A DNA stretch of 64,000 bases from Gammaproteobacteria bacterium (lineage in GTDB: Bacteria; Pseudomonadota; Gammaproteobacteria; QNFE01), in assembly GCA_003645455.1 (NCBI GenBank), contig QNFE01000004.1:3406-67405 (forward strand), in the 5' to 3' direction. Positions within the stretch are counted from its first letter, which is position 1, and each line of letters begins with the position of its first letter. The notes below the pieces were generated by a model. The model was not told where the DNA came from and ran no database searches. It was given only the letters and a program-made list of their open reading frames with translations. The translations under genes were made by a program, and so were the position numbers. Positions 3,110 through 64,000 of the stretch are shown piece after piece.

Positions 3110-3856
3110 TCACCTGCAACTTTGCCTCCTCATGTTGGCAACATTCTTATTTTCATTAAATGTTTTAGGTTTTTCATTTTGAGATATTTCTGTTGTAACT
3201 CGTTCGCCTAACATTGTAAAAATCAACTCCAAATCATCCATATTGTCACGAAGATTAACACCAGACTTTGCTGGTAAATTTTTAAAATCTTTATATTCAC
3301 TTGGCGTCATACCAAAAGTAGCCTTAGATATTTCGGCAGTTAAAATTGCATAATCCCTATGCTCTTTTACGCCTCGCTCTTGCCATTCATCGGTTAAATT
3401 TTGGCGAATAGCAATCCCTCGCAATCGTTTATCAATCCAATCTTTTGGATAACCCTTTTGCTCATAAATTTCTTTCATTCGCTCTTGGGCAAGTTCTGGG
3501 TTTTCTATCTCGTCCAATCTATCTTGCCCCACCTGTGCTAACCACATTTTAAACGGCTCTGCTTTTTTTGATGGAATTGATTGAATTAAACGAAAAATAT
3601 CTTTTATATTTCCTGCAAGTATTTTTCTATTTTTACCAGATAATGTTTGCATCTCTACCTGGGGACAATTTGTCCCTAAGTAGGTTTTTAACTCTTCATC
3701 TCGTTTTCTTATTTTTTTGAGATAATCAGTAGGATTTTTGCTATCAGATAAAATCGCAACAACATCAACCAAAGAATAATGCCACTCTTCATTATGCCAT
3801 GCTCTGCGAATATTTTTGTCTTGAAAAACAATAAGTTTGTTTTGTTGGTTATCCAT
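3110..3856 (-). CDS. Bro-N domain / DinD-like DNA-damage-inducible protein
   Basis: The N-terminal IRRAWHNEEWHYSLVDVVAIL resembles a Bro-N/KilA-N motif. Its size and its position between hsdS and hsdR are typical of dinD/rhuM-type insertions in Type I R-M loci. Assignment is from recalled family patterns only. Confidence 0.45.
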   Translation of the reverse strand: MDNQQNKLIVFQDKNIRRAWHNEEWHYSLVDVVAILSDSKNPTDYLKKIRKRDEELKTYLGTNCPQVEMQTLSGKNRKILAGNIKDIFRLIQSIPSKKAEPFKMWLAQVGQDRLDEIENPELAQERMKEIYEQKGYPKDWIDKRLRGIAIRQNLTDEWQERGVKEHRDYAILTAEISKATFGMTPSEYKDFKNLPAKSGVNLRDNMDDLELIFTMLGERVTTEISQNEKPKTFNENKNVANMRRQSCR

Positions 3857-53594: not shown

Positions 53595-54080
53595 ATGACA
53601 AAAAACCAAACCACACAAAAATTACTCCAAAAAAGATTAAAAAAGGCTTCCAGGCATTTTACAGCATTAAAAGAATATAAGTTCTTAATAGAGCAAATTT
53701 TAATCGATAAGAATATTTACCAAGTAGATGAATACAAACAATTACAACCAGCAGACAGGGCAATATTTGATGCCTATTTAAAAAGATTTTCATCATTGCA
53801 AGATTTTCTGGGGGCAAAAATATTCCCATTGTTGCTTGATATAGCTGGTATAAATAATAACTCATTGAGCGAGGTTTTGTTATATGTTGAAAAAGAGCAG
53901 ATAATTGACAGTCTAGATAGTTGGATTGAGTTGCGAGCGATAAGAAATGAGCTAGAACATGATTATCCAGAGATTATAAGAGAGGCATTAGAGAACTTAA
54001 AATATTGTGTTGATAGTTTTGATAGAATAACTTCTTATTATAAAAATAGTGTCAATTTTTCTAATAAATACATAAAATGA
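53595..54080 (+). CDS. HEPN-domain protein (HepT-like putative RNase toxin)
   Basis: Carries the Rx4-6H motif in ELRAIRNELEHDY. At 161 aa and all-helical, it is immediately followed by nucleotidyltransferase genes. Confidence 0.6.
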   Translation: MTKNQTTQKLLQKRLKKASRHFTALKEYKFLIEQILIDKNIYQVDEYKQLQPADRAIFDAYLKRFSSLQDFLGAKIFPLLLDIAGINNNSLSEVLLYVEKEQIIDSLDSWIELRAIRNELEHDYPEIIREALENLKYCVDSFDRITSYYKNSVNFSNKYIK

Positions 54081-54370
54081 GACTATCAACAAGAATTATA
54101 AGTATTTTAAAAAATAATATCCATACCAGTTTTGGTGATGTTGAGGTATATTTATTCGGTAGTCGTGTAGATGACAACAAATTAGGTGGGGATATTGATC
54201 TTGCCATTGATACTAATATAAATAACCAAAAATTTTTAAAAAATAAGATAAAATTTGACTGCCAGATGATAAGAGCAGGTTATGATTTAAAAGTTGATTT
54301 AGTAAAATACAATCACTGGGACGATTTATTAAACAGACAAATAAAAAACGATGCTATTAAATTATTTTAA
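54077..54370 (+). CDS. Minimal nucleotidyltransferase (MNT, Pol-beta superfamily) protein, copy 1
   Basis: LFGSRVDDNKLGGDIDLAID matches the GS-x9-13-DhD NTase motif. Its start overlaps the HEPN stop (ATGA). Confidence 0.7.
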   Translation: MRLSTRIISILKNNIHTSFGDVEVYLFGSRVDDNKLGGDIDLAIDTNINNQKFLKNKIKFDCQMIRAGYDLKVDLVKYNHWDDLLNRQIKNDAIKLF

Positions 54371-54376
54371 ATTAAA

Positions 54377-54664
54377 ATGAGATTATCAAAACAAGATATA
54401 AATATTATAAAAAATACAATTCTTGACAACATAAACGATGGCAAAATTACTCTATTCGGCAGCCGTGCAGATGACAATAGAAAAGGTGGCGATATTGATT
54501 TAATGGTGGAGACAAATAAAAATATTAGTTTTGCAACTGAGCTTAATATTTTAACAAAATTAGAATTAAATGGCATTGAGAGAAAAGTAGATCTATTGCT
54601 TAAAGCTCCAAATTCAACACCACACAATATTTATAAAAAAGCGAAAAAGGGAGTACTGTTATGA
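54377..54664 (+). CDS. Minimal nucleotidyltransferase (MNT) protein, copy 2 (paralogue of copy 1)
   Basis: LFGSRADDNRKGGDIDLMVE. The N-terminus MRLSKQDINIIKN parallels copy 1 MRLSTRIISILKN. Confidence 0.7.
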   Translation: MRLSKQDINIIKNTILDNINDGKITLFGSRADDNRKGGDIDLMVETNKNISFATELNILTKLELNGIERKVDLLLKAPNSTPHNIYKKAKKGVLL

Positions 54665-55539
54665 TACAGAAACCTCCAATAACAACTGGTAAACAAAATA
54701 TACAAGATAAAATTTATACTTTAAGAGATGTTCAGGTAATGTTAGACAGAGACTTAGCTGAACTTTACGGGACTAAATCTACAAGACTCAGAGAGCAGGT
54801 TAAAAGAAATATAAAAAAATTTCCACAAGATTTTATGTTTGAACTTACTGAACCTGAAACTAATTTGATGGTATCGCAAAATGCGATACCATCAAAACAG
54901 CATTTAGGAGGCAGTTTGCCACTTGTATTCACTGAGCAAGGTGTTTCTATGCTGGCCACTGTTTTAAAAAGTGATATTGCTACACAAATAAGCATAAAAA
55001 TTATGAGAGCTTTCGTCAATATGCGAAAATTCATTTTATCTAATGCAGATATGTTTATGAGATTTGAAAGAATAGAGCATCGCATATCTTTACATGATGA
55101 AAAGTTCAATAAATTATTTCAAGCTATAGAAAACAAAGAGACCAAACCAAAACAACATATATTCTATGATGGACAAATATTTGATGCTTATCTTTATGTC
55201 CGTGATATTATAAAGTCGGCTAAAAAATCTATAAAACTTATAGATAACTATATAGACGAGAGTATTTTAGTATTATTTACAAAAAGAAATGCAGATGTAG
55301 ATATGAAAATATATACAAAAACTATATCCAAGCAATTAGAATTAGACATAAAAAAATATAATGCCCAATATCCAAAGATTGAGGTAAAAAAATTTGCTTT
55401 ATCCCATGATAGATTTTTAATCATAGATGAAAAAAAGATATATCACTTCGGAGCAAGCTTAAAAGATCTTGGCAAAAAATGGTTTGCAGTTTCAAAAATG
55501 GACATAAACTCTTTTGAACTTTTAGAGAAGTTAAAATAG
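54661..55539 (+). CDS. ORF6N (KilA-N-like) domain protein
   Basis: The N-terminal LRDVQVMLDRDLAELYGTKSTRLREQVKRNIKKFPQDFMFELT matches the ORF6N DNA-binding domain. The C-terminal half is uncharacterised. Its start overlaps the MNT2 stop. Confidence 0.65.
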   Translation: MIQKPPITTGKQNIQDKIYTLRDVQVMLDRDLAELYGTKSTRLREQVKRNIKKFPQDFMFELTEPETNLMVSQNAIPSKQHLGGSLPLVFTEQGVSMLATVLKSDIATQISIKIMRAFVNMRKFILSNADMFMRFERIEHRISLHDEKFNKLFQAIENKETKPKQHIFYDGQIFDAYLYVRDIIKSAKKSIKLIDNYIDESILVLFTKRNADVDMKIYTKTISKQLELDIKKYNAQYPKIEVKKFALSHDRFLIIDEKKIYHFGASLKDLGKKWFAVSKMDINSFELLEKLK

Positions 55540-56793
55540 ATGTTAAATAAACTCAAACCAAAATCAGAGTTTAGTCGTAATGTCCTAACTCTTATGACAG
55601 GTAGCACCATCGCCCAAGCTATCCCTATCGCTATTAGCCCTATTTTAACCAGAATTTACACTCCTGAGGATTTTGGGATATTTGCTTTATATATGAGTAT
55701 TGCCTCCATCATAGCGGTCATTGCCACAGGGCGCTATGAATTAGCAATAATGTTACCAGAAAAAGATGAGGATGCTATCAATATTGTAGCTTTATCTGCC
55801 ATCATTACAGTTATCATAAGCCTTTTAACTTTATCAATAGTTATAATATTCAACTTGCAAATTACGAATTTATTAGGCAACCCCCAAATCTCAAATTGGT
55901 TATATCTTGTGCCTATTAGTGTGCTTTTGACAGGATTTTATCAAAGTTTTAATTATTGGTCTAACCGCCAAAAACAATACAAAACCTTAGCACAAAATAA
56001 AGTTATTCAAAGCACCTCAACAGCTGGGGTCAATTTAAGTATGGGGCTGGCAAAATGGGGGGTTGTAGGTTTAATATGGGGCAATATTATAGGGCAAACT
56101 CTTGCTAGTGTAATTTTATTTAAAAATATTTTGAAAAAAAATCATAATTTGCCAACGGCAATCAATAAAAACAAAATAATTAAAATGTTGAAAAGATATA
56201 TAAAATTCCCCAAATATGATATAATATCAGCACTTGCCAACACCTCGGCACAACAGATAACCCATATTTTATTCAATATAATTTACAACCCTGCCATAGC
56301 AGGCTTTTTTTATTTTACTCAAAAAATACTTTCAATGCCAATCACTTATATATCATCTGCCATCTTAGATGTCTTTAAAGAGCAGGCAGCCCGAGATTAT
56401 AAAAAATATAATAACGCTAAAAAAATATATAAATCAACATTTATCAAATTGATGATGATTGCTATCTTGCCTTCTGTTTTTTTATATTTTTTTGCAGTTG
56501 ATATGTTTGTTATAGTTTTTGGAGAAAAATGGCAAATAGCAGGTGAATATGCCAAAATTTTGTCTCCCATGCTTTTTTTCAGATTTATGGGCAACCCATT
56601 GAGTTTTATGTTTTATATTGGCGAGAGGCAAATTTGGGATATGTATAGTCAGACACTATTGCTGTGCAGTATTCTGCTGTCTTTTTTTTGGAACACTAAT
56701 GCAACACAAACTGTATATTTTATATCTTTGGTGTTTTCTATTTTTTATATATCTCAAATTTTTTTATCCGCAAAAATTGCTAAAATATTCTAA
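55540..56793 (+). CDS. wzx: Wzx-like oligosaccharide/O-antigen flippase (MOP superfamily)
   Basis: 417 aa with ~12 TM helices and a polysaccharide-biosynthesis-protein pattern. It heads a glycan cluster. Confidence 0.65.
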   Translation: MLNKLKPKSEFSRNVLTLMTGSTIAQAIPIAISPILTRIYTPEDFGIFALYMSIASIIAVIATGRYELAIMLPEKDEDAINIVALSAIITVIISLLTLSIVIIFNLQITNLLGNPQISNWLYLVPISVLLTGFYQSFNYWSNRQKQYKTLAQNKVIQSTSTAGVNLSMGLAKWGVVGLIWGNIIGQTLASVILFKNILKKNHNLPTAINKNKIIKMLKRYIKFPKYDIISALANTSAQQITHILFNIIYNPAIAGFFYFTQKILSMPITYISSAILDVFKEQAARDYKKYNNAKKIYKSTFIKLMMIAILPSVFLYFFAVDMFVIVFGEKWQIAGEYAKILSPMLFFRFMGNPLSFMFYIGERQIWDMYSQTLLLCSILLSFFWNTNATQTVYFISLVFSIFYISQIFLSAKIAKIF

Positions 56794-56795
56794 TC

Positions 56796-58109
56796 ATGAT
56801 AACTATAACAATCCCCAATAATAACAATAAAGAAAGAGAATATGTGATTAGTGTTATTTTTAAAGAGTTCATGTGTATAGATTATAACATACAGTATGGA
56901 TCAAAAAATTATGAAATTAAGATGAAAAATAACTCTAAATTAATAGTGATAGATTGTTTTTTCAATAAGCATCCAACAAGCCTGTCTTATCTAAAAAATG
57001 AGAACATACCAAAAAAAATAAATTTAGTAAAAAATCAATTTACAAATGTGGATGGTCTACCAGTTATCTACGGCAATAATAAATTAGAAATAAAAGAAGA
57101 CATAATAGTTTGTGGCACAGATATATTTGCTTCTATTTTTTTTATGTTAAGCAGATGGGAAGAGTATGTAAATAAAAATAGAGATTATCATAATCGTTTT
57201 CCAGCAACTGAAAGCATTGCTTTTAAGTATAATTTTTTGAACAGACCGATTGTTGATGAATGCATTAAAATGTTAAAAAATATGCTGATAGAGTTAGATA
57301 GCAGTTTAACATTTAATCAAAATAAAACCAAATTATATTTAACTCATGATGTAGATGAGGTGTATAGATGGAAAAATTGGAGACAAGTAATCAGATCTTC
57401 GCTTGGAGATATAATAAAAAGACAAAACTTGAAGTTAGGTTTAAAGAATTTTAGCAAATATTTTTTAATAAAAAGAAATAAAACAAAAGAACCATTTGAT
57501 ACATTTGACTGGCTAATGAATGAAAGCGAAAAATTAAAAACTAAAAGTAGATTTTATTTTATGAGTGGAGGGAATTCAATTTATGATAGAGGTTATGCTA
57601 TTAACGACAAGTATATATTAAATCTTATTAAAAAAATAAAAAAAAATAATCACTACATAGGTTTTCATCCATCATATAATACATACAATGATCTTGAAAG
57701 ATTTAAGCAAGAAAAAGAATTATTAAGCAATGTTGTTGGTATTGATTTAAAAGAGGGTAGACAACATTTTTTAAGGTTTGAGGTGCCTACTACATGGCAA
57801 ATATGGGAAGATAGCGGAATGAAGGTAGATAGTACTTGTGGATATGCAGACAAAGAAGGTTTCAGGTGTGGCACAGCTTATGAATACAGTGTTTTCAATA
57901 TATTGACAAGAATAAAATTGAACCTAAAAGAGAGACCTTTGATTGTTATGGACTGCACTTTATTTAGGTATATGAATCACAGTCATAAAAGTGCGATGAA
58001 TAGTGTGCTAACAATGCAAAATAAATCAAAAAATTTCACAATATTATGGCATAATTCACACATCGATGATATGATTTTTTATAAAAATTTTTTAAAAAAA
58101 CAATGCTAA
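56796..58109 (+). CDS. Hypothetical protein, possibly polysaccharide deacetylase-like (CE4-like)
   Basis: Soluble 437-aa protein with THDVD and HPSY motifs, reminiscent of NodB-type deacetylases. Its position inside the O-antigen cluster fits. The call is weak. Confidence 0.3.
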   Translation: MITITIPNNNNKEREYVISVIFKEFMCIDYNIQYGSKNYEIKMKNNSKLIVIDCFFNKHPTSLSYLKNENIPKKINLVKNQFTNVDGLPVIYGNNKLEIKEDIIVCGTDIFASIFFMLSRWEEYVNKNRDYHNRFPATESIAFKYNFLNRPIVDECIKMLKNMLIELDSSLTFNQNKTKLYLTHDVDEVYRWKNWRQVIRSSLGDIIKRQNLKLGLKNFSKYFLIKRNKTKEPFDTFDWLMNESEKLKTKSRFYFMSGGNSIYDRGYAINDKYILNLIKKIKKNNHYIGFHPSYNTYNDLERFKQEKELLSNVVGIDLKEGRQHFLRFEVPTTWQIWEDSGMKVDSTCGYADKEGFRCGTAYEYSVFNILTRIKLNLKERPLIVMDCTLFRYMNHSHKSAMNSVLTMQNKSKNFTILWHNSHIDDMIFYKNFLKKQC

Positions 58110-59317
58110 ATTTTCAAAACAAAAATTTTTATCAGTCTCTATTAAACCTATCTTTATATCTATTCGTTTATTATTATTTTGTCAGGGTCGTTTATGTTTA
58201 TTATAAGCTTGCAAAATATATAAGTCTTGATTTTTATAGGGTTGCCCTTTTTGTGCCAGCAGTTATTTTTATTACTCTTGCTGCCTATCATTATTTTAAA
58301 AACATCCAACAATTAAAAAATAATATTTATTTGAATTCATTCCTATCGTTGTTTGCAATTATTGTTTTATCTATAATTTATCATTTTATTTTTCGCTTGG
58401 ATTATATGAGTGATGATGTGTTTTCATATCAAATTAAGAATTTATCTTATAGCATTCTTAATGCTTTGTTAGGTTTTTATCTTTATCAACAATTAAATTC
58501 CAACTCATCAAAAAAAATAATTTTTGTTGTTTGGTTTTTTTATGCGATTATGTTGTTGATTAATTTAAATGGCTTCGCTTTGGATACAAAAGGAGTAAGC
58601 GGTGTTCATTTAATGCTCGGTGATACATTCATAATAATATCAATTGTTGCTATTTTTATGAATATAAATCATAAAATTTTAAAAATTATATCTTTGTCTG
58701 CTGTTTTGATTTTGGCATACTTAATTAACTCTCGCAGTTCTTTTTTTAGTTTTTTGGTCGTGTATTTATTTTTTCTCTACAAAGAAATTGGGTTAAAAAA
58801 TTTGTTGTATTTATTTGTTTTAATGTTTTTTGTTGCATTTGCACTTTATTATTTTGATTTGTTGCGGATAAACAAAAGAATGTTTGGAGTTTTTCAAGGA
58901 CACAGTGACGGCTCATTGAATGAGAGAATGGAACAGTTTAAATATGGTATCGAAGCCATTAAAAATAATTGGTTTTTTGGTGAGTTTGCAGGACAAGCAA
59001 TTGTTCATACGCAAGGCTATAGGAGCGGTCAAATGGGTGCTTATATGCACAATTGGTTGTCATATTATCGTCAATTTGGTTTAGTGTTTTTTGTTATTTT
59101 TACTTTAATGTTTGTTTATGCAGGTCTGTTTATACTTAAAGAATGGTATTTGAAAAACACACCTATAAAAAATATGTTATATTATCTGTTTGTTTTTGAA
59201 GCGGTGTCTTTATTGGTATTTAGAGCTTATAGTTTTACTCATGTATGGCTTGTTATGGTTATGTTATATTCTTATATCCATGACAAAAATATAAAAAATT
59301 TATCGGAGAAAGCATGA
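58103..59317 (+). CDS. O-antigen polymerase/ligase-like (Wzy/WaaL family) membrane protein
   Basis: 404 aa with ~10 TM helices and a large periplasmic loop near the C-terminus. Confidence 0.5.
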   Translation: MLNFQNKNFYQSLLNLSLYLFVYYYFVRVVYVYYKLAKYISLDFYRVALFVPAVIFITLAAYHYFKNIQQLKNNIYLNSFLSLFAIIVLSIIYHFIFRLDYMSDDVFSYQIKNLSYSILNALLGFYLYQQLNSNSSKKIIFVVWFFYAIMLLINLNGFALDTKGVSGVHLMLGDTFIIISIVAIFMNINHKILKIISLSAVLILAYLINSRSSFFSFLVVYLFFLYKEIGLKNLLYLFVLMFFVAFALYYFDLLRINKRMFGVFQGHSDGSLNERMEQFKYGIEAIKNNWFFGEFAGQAIVHTQGYRSGQMGAYMHNWLSYYRQFGLVFFVIFTLMFVYAGLFILKEWYLKNTPIKNMLYYLFVFEAVSLLVFRAYSFTHVWLVMVMLYSYIHDKNIKNLSEKA

Positions 59318-60381
59318 AACTTAAATTTGGATTAGTAGGTTGTGGTAGAATTGCTAAAAGGCATAGCGAGTTGTTGGGGCTTGATCAGATTAAAAATGCA
59401 ACCTTGGTGGCAGTTTGTGATATTATTAAAGAAAAAGCACAAAAAATTGGAAAACAATTTGATGTGCCGTTTTATGATGATATGGATCAGATGATGCAAA
59501 ACACTGATATTGATGTTGTAGTGGTGTTGACAGAAACTGGTCTGCATGCGAAAAATGTTATAAATCTGGCAAAATATGGCAAACATATTTTGGTGGAAAA
59601 ACCTATGGCATTGACTTTGGATGATGCTGATAAAATGATTATGAGCTGTGATAAAAACAATTGTAAATTATTTGTCATCAAACAAAATCGCTTTAATGTG
59701 CCGGTCGTAAAATTACGCGAAGCTTTGGAGGCGGACAGATTTGGCAAATTAGTCTTAGGCACGGTGCGAGTGCGGTGGAGTCGTAATCAAGATTATTATG
59801 ATCAAGCGGATTGGCGAGGAACCTGGGCTATGGACGGCGGAGTTTTAACCAATCAAGCCAGCCACCATGTTGATTTATTAGAGTGGATGATGGGTGATGT
59901 GGAGAGTGTTTTTGCCAAAAGCACCACAGCTTTGGTTGATATTGAAGCCGAAGATACCGCGATTGTAACTTTAAAATTTAAAAATGGAGCGCTGGGAATT
60001 ATAGAGGCAACAACTGCGGTGCGTCCCAAAGATTTGGAAGGTTCAATTAGTATTCTGGGCGAGACAGGCACAGTTGAAATTGGCGGTTTTGCGGTTAATC
60101 AAATGTTACATTGGAATTTTAATAACAAACAACCAGGCGATGATGAGGTGATGGAAAAATACTCGGTAAATCCGCCGAATGTATATGGTTTTGGTCATCA
60201 GGCTTATTATGAACATGTCGTAGATAGCATAATAAATGGTAAAAAGCAGCTTGTTGATGGCTTAGTGGGGCGTAAAAGTTTAGAGTTAATATCAGCTATT
60301 TATGAGTCAATTGAAACCGGACGTGAAGTATTTTTAAGATTTAAACCGACAAAATGTAAATTAGGGCAAATTAGTGAATGA
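59314..60381 (+). CDS. Gfo/Idh/MocA-family NAD-dependent sugar-nucleotide dehydrogenase (WbpB-like UDP-GlcNAcA 3-dehydrogenase)
   Basis: Rossmann start KFGLVGCGRIAKRH and the EKP motif LVEKPMAL. It is followed by a hexapeptide acetyltransferase and a DegT aminotransferase, the WbpB-E-D pathway layout. Confidence 0.7.
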   Translation: MKLKFGLVGCGRIAKRHSELLGLDQIKNATLVAVCDIIKEKAQKIGKQFDVPFYDDMDQMMQNTDIDVVVVLTETGLHAKNVINLAKYGKHILVEKPMALTLDDADKMIMSCDKNNCKLFVIKQNRFNVPVVKLREALEADRFGKLVLGTVRVRWSRNQDYYDQADWRGTWAMDGGVLTNQASHHVDLLEWMMGDVESVFAKSTTALVDIEAEDTAIVTLKFKNGALGIIEATTAVRPKDLEGSISILGETGTVEIGGFAVNQMLHWNFNNKQPGDDEVMEKYSVNPPNVYGFGHQAYYEHVVDSIINGKKQLVDGLVGRKSLELISAIYESIETGREVFLRFKPTKCKLGQISE

Positions 60382-60850
60382 AAAACCTATAATAAAGCAA
60401 ACGGGCATAAAAAATGTTAATTTTGGTAAAAATGTAACTATTATTCAGCCAGTTAATTTATATGGTTGTGACATAGGAGATAACACTTTTGTAGGACCGT
60501 TTGTTGAAATTCAAAAAGATGTTAAAATTGGCAAAAATTGTAAAATCCAATCCCATTGTTTTATTTGTGAATTAGTGAATATCGGCGATAATACAGTCAT
60601 AGCTCATGGGGTAATGTTTATCAATGATTTGTTTAAAAATGGTCGCCCCGCAGGTGGTGATAAAAAATTATGGCAAAAAACTAAGATAGGTAATAATGTG
60701 TCAATCGGTTCAAATGCCACCATTTTGCCAGTTAATATTTGTGATAAGGTCGTAATCGGAGCAGGCTCGGTGGTCACCAAAAATATAACAGAATCTGCTG
60801 TTTATGCTGGCAACCCTGCCAAAAAAATAAAAAATTTTACTGATAGATAA
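60374..60850 (+). CDS. Left-handed beta-helix (hexapeptide-repeat) N-acetyltransferase (WbpD/WlbB-like)
   Basis: 158 aa with hexapeptide repeats (IGDNTVIAHGVMF, IGNNVSIGSNATI). Confidence 0.7.
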   Translation: MNEKPIIKQTGIKNVNFGKNVTIIQPVNLYGCDIGDNTFVGPFVEIQKDVKIGKNCKIQSHCFICELVNIGDNTVIAHGVMFINDLFKNGRPAGGDKKLWQKTKIGNNVSIGSNATILPVNICDKVVIGAGSVVTKNITESAVYAGNPAKKIKNFTDR

Positions 60851-61086: not shown

Positions 61087-62241
61087 ATGGAAAATATAAC
61101 TGTTTCAATTAAAAACAAACAAATCGGTGAGCTTTTTTATGATGAAAGTTTGCATCAATACGGTTTTAATTACAATAATGACGTGGCTCCTATATCATTG
61201 ACTATGCCATTTAAAAACTCAACCTATCTATGGCAAAATAAACTCCATCCAATTTTTGATATGCACATGCCAGAGGGTTATTTGTTTGAAGTATTTAAAA
61301 ACTATCTTAATAAAAAACACGGATTTATCAATGATTTTCTAATTTTTTCTTATTTATCGGCTAATATTCAAAGCAGATTGGAATTTAAAAGTGAATTTGC
61401 GGTTAAGAAATTTAAAAGTTTGGAGTTATCTTATATATTACAAAATGATGATAACGATACTTTTTTAAAACTTGTTAAAATGTTTCTATCTAAAAACTCT
61501 ATCTCTGGTATTCAACCTAAAACCATCGCAGTTGTAAAAGACAAAGAGGCTTTAAATTATCGTGAATATATTGTAAAAACATGGGGTGATGAATATCCGC
61601 AGTTGGCTCTTAACGAATATTTTTGCTTAAAAGCCGTGCAAGAATCAGGGGTTACTATCCCTCATATTCATCTATCAAATAACAACAAATTTTTACTGGT
61701 TGAAAGATTTAATTATGATAAAAAAAATAATAAATTTTTAGGTTTTGAAGAAGTTCTGGGTTTAATGGGTAAAAATTCTTCGCAGAAATATACGGGTAGT
61801 TATGAGCAGGTGGCAAAACTAATCTATAAAATAACAACCGATAAAATCGCAGATATGACAAATTTTTATAAAATAATGGTGATGAATTATTTACTTAAAA
61901 ATGGCGACGCTCATCTTAAAAATTTCGGCATAATTTATAATGATGATTTTTCCGTTATAAAACTTGCCCCAGCTTATGATATAGTTAATACCGTGGCATA
62001 TTTATATGACGATAAACCTGCTCTTACGATGTTTGGCAAAAAAGTCTGGTTCGGCAAAAAGGATTTATTAAAATTTGGCATCAAACATTGTTATTTATCC
62101 AAAACACAAGCTAATAGATGCTATCAAGATTGTTTTTTATCTTTGCAAGAAAACCACCAAAAATTAAAAAAATATATAAAAACAAATCCTGATTTTGTTA
62201 ATATAGGCACAAAAATGTTAGACAGTTGGAGGGTAGAATAG
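61087..62241 (+). CDS. HipA-like Ser/Thr kinase toxin
   Basis: The HipA N-terminal region (IGELFYDES...FDMHMPEGYLFE) and the kinase catalytic motif NGDAHLKNFGI (DxHxxN) are both present. Confidence 0.75.
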   Translation: MENITVSIKNKQIGELFYDESLHQYGFNYNNDVAPISLTMPFKNSTYLWQNKLHPIFDMHMPEGYLFEVFKNYLNKKHGFINDFLIFSYLSANIQSRLEFKSEFAVKKFKSLELSYILQNDDNDTFLKLVKMFLSKNSISGIQPKTIAVVKDKEALNYREYIVKTWGDEYPQLALNEYFCLKAVQESGVTIPHIHLSNNNKFLLVERFNYDKKNNKFLGFEEVLGLMGKNSSQKYTGSYEQVAKLIYKITTDKIADMTNFYKIMVMNYLLKNGDAHLKNFGIIYNDDFSVIKLAPAYDIVNTVAYLYDDKPALTMFGKKVWFGKKDLLKFGIKHCYLSKTQANRCYQDCFLSLQENHQKLKKYIKTNPDFVNIGTKMLDSWRVE

Positions 62242-62244
62242 AGC

Positions 62245-62505
62245 ATGAATTTAGATGAAATAGGACCCAAAATACAACAACTTAGAAAAAGTTTAAAAAT
62301 AACTCAACAGGAACTATCAGATTTAAGTGGCATAAGCCGGGTTACCTTAGGCAAATTAGAGCGAGGAGAAATTGCTCCAATTTCTTTAAAAACTCTCGAT
62401 TTGATTTTAAATAAACTCAATTATGAAATAGATTTTGTCGTAAAAAATAAATTTTCTTTGCCGACTTTGGATCAAATGGGACAAGACAGTAAGTTTTATA
62501 CATAA
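62245..62505 (+). CDS. XRE-family helix-turn-helix protein (HipB-like putative antitoxin), encoded downstream of the kinase
   Basis: ITQQELSDLSGISRVTLGKLERGE is an HTH_XRE motif. It starts 4 nt after the hipA-like stop. Confidence 0.7.
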   Translation: MNLDEIGPKIQQLRKSLKITQQELSDLSGISRVTLGKLERGEIAPISLKTLDLILNKLNYEIDFVVKNKFSLPTLDQMGQDSKFYT

Positions 62506-62520
62506 TAAGGAGAGAATATA

Positions 62521-62784
62521 ATGCAATTAGAAGCAATTAGAAAAAACGGTCATTTTTATATTCCATATTTAGATAGGGTAAAAGTAAAATCCGATAAAAT
62601 TATGATTGAAATAGATAATGATATTATTGAGAATAAAAATGATAAAAAAATAGAATATTCGGATGAATACCTTCAAAAAAACTGGCGAAAATTGATTATG
62701 ACCTCGTCTTTGCCAGTTGATTATGAAGATAGCGAGGAATATAAAAAAGATCGTGGTGAATATTTAGCAAAAAAATACCAATGA
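62521..62784 (+). CDS. Hypothetical small acidic protein (candidate antitoxin partner of the downstream PIN domain)
   Basis: 87 aa. Its stop overlaps the downstream ATG (ATGA), the classic toxin-antitoxin coupling. Confidence 0.35.
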   Translation: MQLEAIRKNGHFYIPYLDRVKVKSDKIMIEIDNDIIENKNDKKIEYSDEYLQKNWRKLIMTSSLPVDYEDSEEYKKDRGEYLAKKYQ

Positions 62785-64000
62785 AAAATATTCTATTGGA
62801 TTTGAATGTAATATTTGATAACTATGATCCGGTTAGACAAAAGTCATACCCATCATCTGTTGTCGCTTTAAACGAATTAAAAAAAGATAAAAATGTAAAT
62901 ATTTTTATATCTGCAAGCTCGCTTGATAATTTGCATTTTATAAAATTAAAAGATATAAAACGAGAACATCCAGCGCTAACCAACAAAAAAGCTAATTTTT
63001 TGACGAATAATTTTATCAAAGATATATTGTCATTTTGCCGCATTATCAAAACCCCATCTTACCTAGATATAGATTATAACAATATAGAGGACTCACAAAT
63101 CATAGCATCTGCTATCGCCTGTAATGCGATAGTTATAAGCCGTGATAAAAATATGTTAAATAGTTATCCAGATATAGCAATAAACCCCAAACAATTTTTA
63201 AAAATTATCAAGCCTGAAAACCAACAGATTAAATTTTTAGACCTACCATCTCAATATGCCAAAATTCAACCCCAGATAGAACAAGTCATTGATAAAGTTA
63301 TAAATAATAGTGCTTTTATCGGTGGTGAATATGTTGCCAAATTTGAAAAAAAATTTGCCGTCTATCAAGATGCGGATTTTTGTGTAGGGGTAGCCAACGG
63401 CACAGATGCTTTGGAGATTGCGATTGAAGCTTTTGATTTACCAAAAAATAGTGAGATTATAGTGCCTGCAAATAGTTTTATCGCAAGCTCCGAGGCGGTT
63501 ACCAGATGCGGACATAAAGTAGTATTTTGTGATTGCAATAAGCACAACTACACAATTTCAATAAAAAGCTTACAAGAGAAAATTACGAGAAAAACAGCCG
63601 CCATAATCGCTGTTCATATTTATGGGCATCCGGCTGATATGGACGAATTATTAAAAATTGCCAAAACTCATAACCTTAAAATCATAGAAGACTGTGCTCA
63701 ATCTCATGGTGGCACCTACAAAAACCAAAAAATAGGGGCAATAGGTGATATCGGGGCTTTTAGTTTTTACCCTGGCAAAAATCTGGGAGCATATGGCGAC
63801 GGTGGAGCGATCACTACCAACAACCAAACCTTAGCCAAAAAATGTAAAATGATTGCCAATCATGGTAGGGTAGAAAAGTATAATCATCAATTTGAGGGTA
63901 GAAATTCAAGGTTAGATGCCATCCAAGCTGCGATATTATCAATAAAATTAAAATACTTAGATAACTGGACGGATGCCAGGATAAAAGTAGCAGACTATTA
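62781..64000 (+). CDS. PIN-like domain fused in frame to a DegT/DnrJ/EryC1-family aminotransferase (WbpE-like). Partial: the ORF continues past the window end
   Basis: Hand translation from ATG 62781 shows no stop through 64000. The N-terminal ~124 aa (ILLDLNVIFD ... DSQIIASAIACNAIVISRDKN) has PIN-domain acidic positions. From ~63230 the sequence (IKFLDLPSQYAKIQPQIEQVI..GGEYVAKFEKKFA..VGVANGTDAL...YGHPADMDEL..) is a PLP sugar aminotransferase. An internal in-frame ATG at 63153 may be the aminotransferase's own start. The ORF track omits this ORF because it is open-ended. Confidence 0.7.
   Translation, partial: MKNILLDLNVIFDNYDPVRQKSYPSSVVALNELKKDKNVNIFISASSLDNLHFIKLKDIKREHPALTNKKANFLTNNFIKDILSFCRIIKTPSYLDIDYNNIEDSQIIASAIACNAIVISRDKNMLNSYPDIAINPKQFLKIIKPENQQIKFLDLPSQYAKIQPQIEQVIDKVINNSAFIGGEYVAKFEKKFAVYQDADFCVGVANGTDALEIAIEAFDLPKNSEIIVPANSFIASSEAVTRCGHKVVFCDCNKHNYTISIKSLQEKITRKTAAIIAVHIYGHPADMDELLKIAKTHNLKIIEDCAQSHGGTYKNQKIGAIGDIGAFSFYPGKNLGAYGDGGAITTNNQTLAKKCKMIANHGRVEKYNHQFEGRNSRLDAIQAAILSIKLKYLDNWTDARIKVADY

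Follow-up and report, generated by a model that had tools for sequence, protein, structure and literature searches.

Is a toxin-like nuclease domain a genuine part of a surface-polysaccharide enzyme, and if so, what would it do there? This question is raised by the end of a 64,000-nucleotide stretch of DNA (positions 3,406 to 67,405 of contig QNFE01000004.1, assembly GCA_003645455.1; hereafter the window) from a metagenome-assembled Gammaproteobacteria bacterium, where an open reading frame (ORF) beginning at ATG 62781 joins a VapC-type PIN domain to a DegT/DnrJ/EryC1 aminotransferase dependent on pyridoxal 5'-phosphate (PLP). Nucleases of toxin-antitoxin systems are as a rule encoded in mobile two-gene cassettes that stand by themselves, and what they do for the cell is debated. 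The original prediction, made from the sequence of the window, offered two alternatives, a VapC-like PIN domain fused to the glycan aminotransferase or a PIN pseudogene read through into a degT gene starting at the in-frame ATG 63153. The first is supported by a conserved in-frame fusion, by substitution rates and by start-codon data, and the fusion is almost certainly real and conserved. The best explanation of it, to which we assign a probability of roughly 0.55, is a VapBC-like toxin-antitoxin pair that has been joined to a glycan-pathway enzyme inside a biosynthetic operon, forming an inhibitor-controlled nuclease.

The frame can be read directly from the forward strand. ATG 62781 is the only ATG, GTG or TTG that follows the in-frame stop at 62757-62759, and from it 406 codons run without a stop to the window end at 64000, as had been claimed; at 34% G+C, with a stop probability of 0.085 per codon, the chance probability of such a run is ~2e-16. 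The sequence also bears out the claimed overlap, ATG 62781 sharing an ATGA with the TGA of an ORF of 87 amino acids (aa) at 62521-62784. The gene is indeed missing from the accompanying list of ORFs, because that list omits those leaving the window end. Exact look-up of the 87-aa protein located two independent assemblies, the 75-kb metagenome contig ENA ERZ27227324 (L049) and Logan SRR6478866 (L050), which match 62521-64000 base for base. Extension past 64000 with both gave a complete ORF of 516 aa (L049:10261-11811), ending 331 nucleotides (nt) past the window end. Since both carry identical sequence and the ORF to 516 codons, a sequencing error or frameshift in 63100-63250 is excluded. The gene models of JGI, ENA and Logan give the same protein as 516 aa, and that of NCBI (RLA08711.1) as 392 aa from the internal ATG 63153. 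The NCBI model, from which the PIN domain has been dropped, is named 'erythromycin biosynthesis sensory transduction protein eryC1'.

When the PIN part was compared with 5.8 billion proteins, few relatives were found, and those long enough run on into DegT. Scanning one genome per GTDB species with the PIN alignment yielded 46 loci, the best PIN match being 51% identical to the window copy. These loci derive from Campylobacterota (Sulfurimonas, Sulfurovum and Arcobacteraceae), Methylococcales, Chromatiaceae, including the isolate Thiohalocapsa marina DSM 19078, Thiotrichaceae, Aquificota, Zetaproteobacteria, Desulfobacterota, Gracilibacteria, Peptostreptococcaceae and Leptospiraceae. The PIN-to-DegT ORF is unbroken in 41 of the 46, complete examples being ~500-545 aa long; four others are cut by a contig end (L010, L013, L040 and L043), and in L034 a stop falls just after the PIN domain with DegT in another frame, probably through a frameshift. 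A further 46 metagenome contigs carry the PIN-DegT fusion. A profile search of 1.84 billion representative proteins recovered ~18 clusters at E<1e-30, with complete members of ~513-540 aa, and stand-alone PIN proteins (~137 aa) appeared only at E 1e-9 and weaker and without the KTPxY motif of the fusion family. There are also more divergent PIN-DegT subfamilies (P0045, P0047, P0055, P0060, P0065, P0066 and L071). Divergent fusions keep the two-gene layout, and an overlapping upstream ORF of 86-98 aa was seen among them.

Conservation within the family was assessed on 38 full-length fusions, to which the counts for residues, linker and start codons refer. The linker between the domains is short, of near-constant length and without Met in any relative. 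In the window it comprises residues 144-149 (the PENQQ region; 63210..63227, forward strand), which by the secondary structure of the model and the alignment of the 38 fusions lead from the last PIN helix to the first DegT strand and hold no start codon. Ratios of nonsynonymous to synonymous substitution rates (dN/dS), calculated by the Nei-Gojobori method for pairs with dS of 0.6-1.8, were 0.07-0.13 for the PIN half and 0.06-0.19 for the DegT half, values which are indistinguishable. Both halves are under purifying selection.

The two halves also show mosaic evolution. Their identities correlate at r=0.50 overall; L005 and L006 are 74% identical in the PIN domain and 45% in DegT, and between L035 and L038 dS is 0.15 in the PIN domain and 1.66 in DegT. 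In such pairs the PIN segments resemble each other far more closely than the aminotransferase halves do, which implies that the genes have recombined close to the boundary between the domains without loss of the frame. The segment made up of the PIN domain and its partner and the segment encoding the enzyme have partly separate histories, the frame always being kept.

The partner is the 87-aa antitoxin-like protein encoded at 62521..62784 on the forward strand, the TGA of which overlaps the fusion ATG and homologues of which lie directly upstream of the fusion in nearly all loci. A Shine-Dalgarno (SD) sequence, AAGGAGA (62507..62513, forward strand), stands 7 nt before its ATG; of 26 relatives in which the small ORF was mapped, 22 likewise have an SD-like motif ahead of it. 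Nearly every fusion locus has an upstream ORF of 70-108 aa, overlapping the fusion by 4 nt (ATGA, GTGA or TTGA) or by ~20 nt. The C-terminal half of the small protein is conserved, with the motif [ST]DEY(I/V)xxxW(R/K)E(L/I) followed by DYYKSxQYKxDR or DDDxxLxxxYxxYxxxKHS (in the homologues directly upstream of the fusion, [ST]DEYxxxNW...Y(K/E)xDR), and its N-terminal 40 residues fall into at least three unrelated types.

The association was also recovered from the side of the small protein. A metagenome search with a subset of the small-protein alignment, which is independent of PIN and DegT, found 62 loci, 46 of them, the metagenome contigs mentioned above, with an adjoining in-frame PIN-DegT. 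Among the rest, the PIN domain runs off the contig in five, one has a PIN domain followed by a stop on an old, low-quality contig, and ten have no detected PIN domain; five of these ten lie at contig ends, and another (L071) does carry a divergent PIN-DegT after a second small ORF. The small protein is thereby shown to be a dedicated partner, obligately associated with the fusion. In L071 (1488-3575) the divergent fusion follows tandem partner-type ORFs of 98 aa and 108 aa with differing N-terminal types. Homologues of the small protein without PIN-DegT were observed in L104 (366-1233), with a nucleotidyltransferase-like fragment on one side and an uncharacterised 143-aa protein on the other, and in L085 (1724-1996), as an orphan ~1 kb from an unrelated canonical PIN pair.

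One of the N-terminal types, MYAIEFEADVxNGMIKIP..., links the small protein to a canonical pair: across 45 residues it shares 52% identity with a 75-aa ORF of L085 that overlaps a canonical stand-alone 145-aa PIN gene (Pfam PIN, 1.3e-16). This N-terminal module is thus shared with the partner of an ordinary VapC-like toxin. Searches of Pfam, NCBIfam and PDB sequences matched none of the DNA-binding N-terminal domains of antitoxins (AbrB, RHH, PHD or HTH) in the small protein; a GxxxIP pattern, judged by eye, suggests an AbrB-like domain.

The PIN domain occupies residues 1-143 of the fusion (62781..63209, forward strand). The original prediction had put its length at ~124 residues, but the domain is in fact ~143 residues long and M125 lies inside it, within a PIN helix of the AlphaFold2 (AF2) model. 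No Pfam or NCBIfam PIN match at E<=1 was obtained with the N-terminal 150 aa of the window copy, and neither sequence nor family-profile searches of PDB sequences with the PIN domain gave anything meaningful. Because the direct Pfam and NCBIfam scans of the window copy are empty, the identity of the domain is drawn from relatives and from structure. Four of five close relatives (45-58% identical) match PIN_3 PF13470 (1.6e-8) and PIN PF01850 (1.2e-5). The AF2 model of residues 1-150, with a predicted local distance difference test (pLDDT) score of 95, has the three-layer alpha/beta/alpha PIN topology, and its best Foldseek matches in the PDB were VapC2 of Rickettsia felis (3zvk), FitB (2bsq/2h1c), Shigella VapC (5ecw) and PAE2754, all at probability 1.0 and with template modelling (TM) scores of ~0.55-0.67. 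The PIN assignment therefore stands on the fold and on the hidden Markov model matches of its relatives, and not on any such match of the window copy itself. A scan of viral contigs for the PIN family found none.

The putative acidic tetrad of the domain comprises D7 (conserved in 38/38 fusions), D49 (33/38), D104 (31/38) and D122 (34/38), and a further motif, K90-T91-P92-x-Y94, is characteristic of the family. D7 follows beta-1 and D49 lies where the helix that succeeds beta-2 makes its first turn; D104 falls in DSQIIASA, similar to the VapC motif D-x-x-I-A-A-x-A, and D122 in (T/S)RD after beta-4. The positions of this putative tetrad resemble those in FitB.

Loss of the partner coincides with decay of this tetrad. 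The tetrad is intact in 29 of the 38 fusions and substituted in L017, L019, L022, L023, L028, L031, L046, L047 and L048. None of the 29 intact-tetrad loci has lost the small ORF, whereas it is missing in L023, L046 and L047 and is a pseudogene with two in-frame stops in L019; all four loci without an intact small ORF have tetrad substitutions, three or more of them in L019, L023 and L046. The cross-tabulation of small-ORF loss and tetrad decay, 4/0 against 4/29, gives p ~0.001 by Fisher's exact test, calculated by hand with no phylogenetic correction and leaving out L022, the upstream region of which is cut by a contig end. This pattern is as expected if the small protein neutralises an active and potentially harmful site, the evidence being correlative. 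In the Candidatus Endobugula sp. metagenome-assembled genome (L019:9720-9995), the small-ORF pseudogene adjoins a PIN domain with D49V, D104G and D122N and an intact aminotransferase half.

The remainder of the fusion, residues 150-406 in the window (63228..64000, forward strand) and to 516 beyond it, is a nucleotide-sugar 3-aminotransferase domain of the DegT/DnrJ/EryC1 type, as had been predicted. Pfam DegT_DnrJ_EryC1 matches residues 162-405 (E 1e-86), residue 162 being aligned to position 3 of the profile, and the catalytic Lys K333 of the PLP Schiff base, together with the cofactor-binding residues D304 and Q307, is invariant in 38/38 fusions. The C-terminal 371 residues align end to end with C3 aminotransferases of the PDB, namely HCAN_0200 (7n63), 7b0d, QdtB, WlaRG, DesV and then WbpE, residue 2-3 of which corresponds to fusion residue ~150; the first aminotransferase strand, IKFLDL, is preceded by the linker of about six residues. 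The full-length AF2 model (pLDDT 89, predicted TM score (pTM) 0.76) superimposes on 7b0d, 7n63, 5u23, 3frk and 3nu8 with TM scores of 0.94-0.96 relative to the target, and the N-terminal 150 residues are covered by none of these solved structures (TM relative to the query <=0.69). No NCBIfam equivalog cut-off was reached by the aminotransferase, and its assignment to the C3 class, exact substrate and product aside, is by similarity only. In common with WbpE, QdtB, WlaRG, DesV and HCAN_0200, the enzyme half shows end-to-end alignment of residues 150-516 at 36-48% identity (structure-based), the catalytic Lys/Asp/Gln and like pathway neighbours; unlike the fusion, every solved or characterised member consists of one domain only, is ~360-400 aa long and has a start codon of its own. 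The enzyme half is an ordinary C3 sugar aminotransferase except that it lacks a separate start, and the fusion protein probably carries out the amination step of a 2,3-diacetamido-sugar branch.

The reading of the locus as a toxin-antitoxin pair joined to a glycan enzyme starts from a single 516-codon gene, which encodes a VapC-type PIN domain, the ~6-residue linker and an entire PLP-dependent nucleotide-sugar 3-aminotransferase. This gene is translated in tandem with the ORF of 87 aa, which has a strong SD sequence and shares the ATGA stop-start overlap with it. Under this reading the PIN domain would keep a metal-dependent ribonuclease site (D7/D49/D104/D122), to which the small protein would bind through its conserved C-terminal half, thereby blocking it, and the aminotransferase half would do its ordinary pathway job. 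As to the role of such an arrangement, stabilisation of the glycan locus, or a growth arrest triggered by stress or phage and tied to glycan synthesis, are speculation.

Several observations weigh against this reading. The strictest conservation in the PIN domain is that of K90, T91, P92, Y94, D13, R19, E103 and R121, family-specific residues that exceed the canonical tetrad and stay invariant even in tetrad-degenerate members. Because they are invariant where the tetrad has decayed, the PIN domain may well have a conserved role beyond, or other than, catalysis, and these residues might contact the enzyme half or the partner. The equation of D7/D49/D104/D122 with the canonical tetrad is itself tentative, being drawn from similarity to VapC and FitB motifs and from predicted secondary-structure position. 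The small ORF is kept despite a degenerate tetrad in L017, L028, L031 and L048. Comparison of the small protein family with Pfam, NCBIfam and PDB sequences matched it to no known antitoxin family; in PADLOC neither it nor the PIN-DegT fusion is represented by a model, and the sole hint of an antitoxin was VapB15 at E 0.02 in 2/25 members. The small ORF in general abuts or overlaps the stop of the upstream acetyltransferase gene, and in the window begins 15 nt after an Xre gene, so there is no obvious space for a dedicated autoregulated promoter or operator, although promoters inside upstream genes may exist. Finally, the nuclease activity and toxicity of the PIN domain and its neutralisation by the small protein are predictions.

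Two other explanations would dissolve the fusion altogether. That two genes were joined artificially, through a stop missed or a frameshift introduced in sequencing or assembly, is barely credible: the breaks in the related contigs L002, L034 and L093 do look like frameshift errors, but nothing of the kind was found for the window, and dozens of unrelated genomes show the frame equally unbroken; sequencing error is rejected by the identity of the independent assemblies. It is very improbable that the locus makes two products, with a 392-aa aminotransferase initiated at the internal in-frame ATG (63153..63155, forward strand; M125) and the PIN stretch upstream reduced to a decaying in-frame pseudogene. 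This start is the one used in RLA08711.1, and M125 is Met in 25/38 relatives, but the equivalent codon is TTA, ATA, ATT or TTT, i.e. not a start, in 8/38, and an SD-like motif precedes it in 1/38 and is absent upstream of ATG 63153 itself, which is probably not a real start. Initiation there would leave a 25-residue PIN fragment on the enzyme, the solved homologues of which begin at the equivalent of residue ~150, and a decaying pseudogene is at odds with a PIN dN/dS of ~0.1 and an in-frame fusion conserved across phyla. An independent degT start in related genomes, which the original prediction had suggested looking for, is contradicted by the same counts and by a linker free of Met. Both pseudogene read-through, the second of the original alternatives, and internal initiation are rejected by the dN/dS, codon-125 and SD data, together with the 41 continuous loci.

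The main rival accepts the fusion and denies the nuclease. It holds that the PIN domain is a domesticated, non-nucleolytic module for oligomerisation, scaffolding or ligand binding, in which the likeness to toxin-antitoxin systems is only ancestry, and which together with the small protein would assemble or regulate the 3-dehydrogenase, aminotransferase and acetyltransferase steps. This is possible, though unlikely, and it would account for KTPxY, R19, R121, D13 and E103 being more conserved than the tetrad and persisting in degenerate members, for the survival of the fusion with a degenerate tetrad in about 8/38 loci, and for its position inside an operon without promoter space. The short linker of near-constant length, which suggests a fixed geometry, the pTM of the full-length AF2 model and the interchangeable N-terminal modules of the small protein point the same way. 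However, the tetrad is intact in most loci and under purifying selection, and the small ORF has been lost only where it has decayed, as expected of an active-site neutraliser. A bifunctional metabolic enzyme, in which the PIN-like site acts on a non-RNA phosphodiester or pyrophosphate such as a nucleotide-sugar or an off-pathway intermediate, is improbable. Support for it is indirect: nucleotide-sugar 3-aminotransferases are the only enzymes to which the domain is fused, they belong to two or more types of pathway (with a WbpD-like acetyltransferase or an FdtA-like isomerase), and the invariant K90, T91, Y94, R19 and R121 could bind diphosphate. Against this, every structural neighbour is an RNA or DNA nuclease, and the reading would explain neither why there is an antitoxin-like partner nor why that partner is lost along with the tetrad. 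No PIN-like domain is known to act on nucleotide-sugars.

A more specific version of the nuclease reading, which must be regarded as doubtful, is that the small protein and the PIN domain form a domesticated toxin-antitoxin switch by which RNA cleavage is coupled to the synthesis of surface glycan. The nuclease half would be released on loss of the small protein or on a change in pathway status and would then cut the operon's own mRNA or tRNA/rRNA, the effect being a tuned glycan output, or growth arrest upon replacement of the glycan locus or phage attack.

With the joined toxin-antitoxin pair as the preferred reading, the module is most like a VapBC/FitAB pair, but fails two features of that class, the stand-alone toxin and the autonomous cassette. 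It shares with VapBC/FitAB the PIN fold, the best structural matches being VapC2, FitB and Shigella VapC; a small partner encoded upstream, the stop of which overlaps the start of the next gene and which has a conserved C-terminal half after a variable N-terminal module; and a partner lost only together with active-site decay. It differs in that the toxin-like domain is not a stand-alone protein of ~135 aa but forms the N-terminal part of a biosynthetic enzyme of 516 aa; the in-frame joining to an enzyme domain, of 367 aa in the window, is seen there and in the 41/46 loci reaching DegT. Further differences are the position of the pair within an operon, without promoter or operator space of its own (a point which, as stated, counts against the preferred reading), a partner that matches no known antitoxin family, and the invariant KTPxY, which the nearest stand-alone PIN proteins lack.

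PIN domains, named after PilT N-termini, are known in fusions to larger enzymes, and PhoH2 consists of a PIN domain fused to a PhoH ATPase, with a small upstream partner. PhoH2 shows that a VapC-like PIN domain can form the N-terminal part of a protein with a larger enzymatic domain, but there that larger domain is an RNA-directed ATPase acting with the nuclease on RNA, whereas the fusion described here involves a sugar PLP enzyme without known link to nucleic acids. The fusion of PIN_4 with PhoH is mentioned in Matelska 2017. The PIN-DegT fusion is not mentioned in a comprehensive PIN classification (PMC5499597) or in a survey of type II toxin-antitoxin systems (PMC2701414), and no description of a sugar-aminotransferase fusion was found in the literature searched on PIN or VapC with DegT, aminotransferase or O-antigen. 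The suggestion that such a fusion would be novel thus holds with respect to published descriptions but not to sequence data, as the architecture is already present in public databases, unremarked, as 'aminotransferase' or 'PIN domain-containing protein' and sometimes mis-annotated.

The fusion gene is located in a Wzx/Wzy polysaccharide locus, in which a flippase gene (55540-56793) is followed by a homologue of the VimE-like UDP-2,3-diacetamido-2,3-dideoxy-alpha-D-glucuronate deacetylase with DUF7033 (56796-58109; NCBIfam E 2e-60 and 204 bits, below the 440-bit cut-off) and a gene for a Wzy_C protein (58103-59317). Next, on the forward strand, are genes for a Gfo/Idh/MocA sugar 3-dehydrogenase, WbpB-like (59314..60381; Pfam, and NCBIfam UDP-GlcNAc 3-dehydrogenase at 1e-36, below cut-off), and for a hexapeptide-repeat acetyltransferase, WbpD-like (60374..60850; Pfam Hexapep). 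The VimE-like gene hints that the locus may make, and then partly de-acetylate, a 2,3-diacetamido sugar. The proposal that the aminotransferase is the expected partner of the upstream WbpB/WbpD-like genes is supported by these Pfam and NCBIfam matches and by its similarity to C3 aminotransferases. The pathway genes found beside the fusions are of two kinds, a hexapeptide acetyltransferase (WbpD-like) or an FdtA-like cupin isomerase, and in most related loci the acetyltransferase gene directly abuts the small ORF.

In the window, a gene for a HipA-like kinase (384 aa; Pfam HipA_C 1.9e-42 and Couple_hipA) and an 86-aa Xre-type helix-turn-helix gene (61087-62505) are inserted between the acetyltransferase gene and the small ORF, the Xre gene standing after, not before, the kinase gene. 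The pair is absent from all 46 related genome loci. The window locus therefore carries two toxin-antitoxin-like pairs back to back. Upstream of the flippase gene, at ~54077-55539 (L049:1557-3019), are tandem nucleotidyltransferase genes (97 and 95 aa; NTP_transf_2/Polbeta) followed by a gene for an ORF6N-domain protein (292 aa); ORF6N genes are also present in the vicinity of two divergent PIN-DegT fusions, those of L113 and L114.

The PIN domain is lost from at least one NCBI gene model, which starts at an internal Met; this hides the architecture from annotation-based surveys, and similar truncated models may hide it elsewhere. At least one host of the fusion, Thiohalocapsa marina DSM 19078, is in culture. 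A VapC-type domain has here been covalently joined to a surface-polysaccharide enzyme, its partner has been kept, and the arrangement is under purifying selection in many phyla, which makes it a system in which the function of a chromosomal toxin-antitoxin module can be studied in concrete terms, the module being bound to a defined pathway. If the switch proposed above were true, it would constitute a conserved, direct regulatory link from a toxin-antitoxin nuclease to the biosynthesis of envelope polysaccharide.

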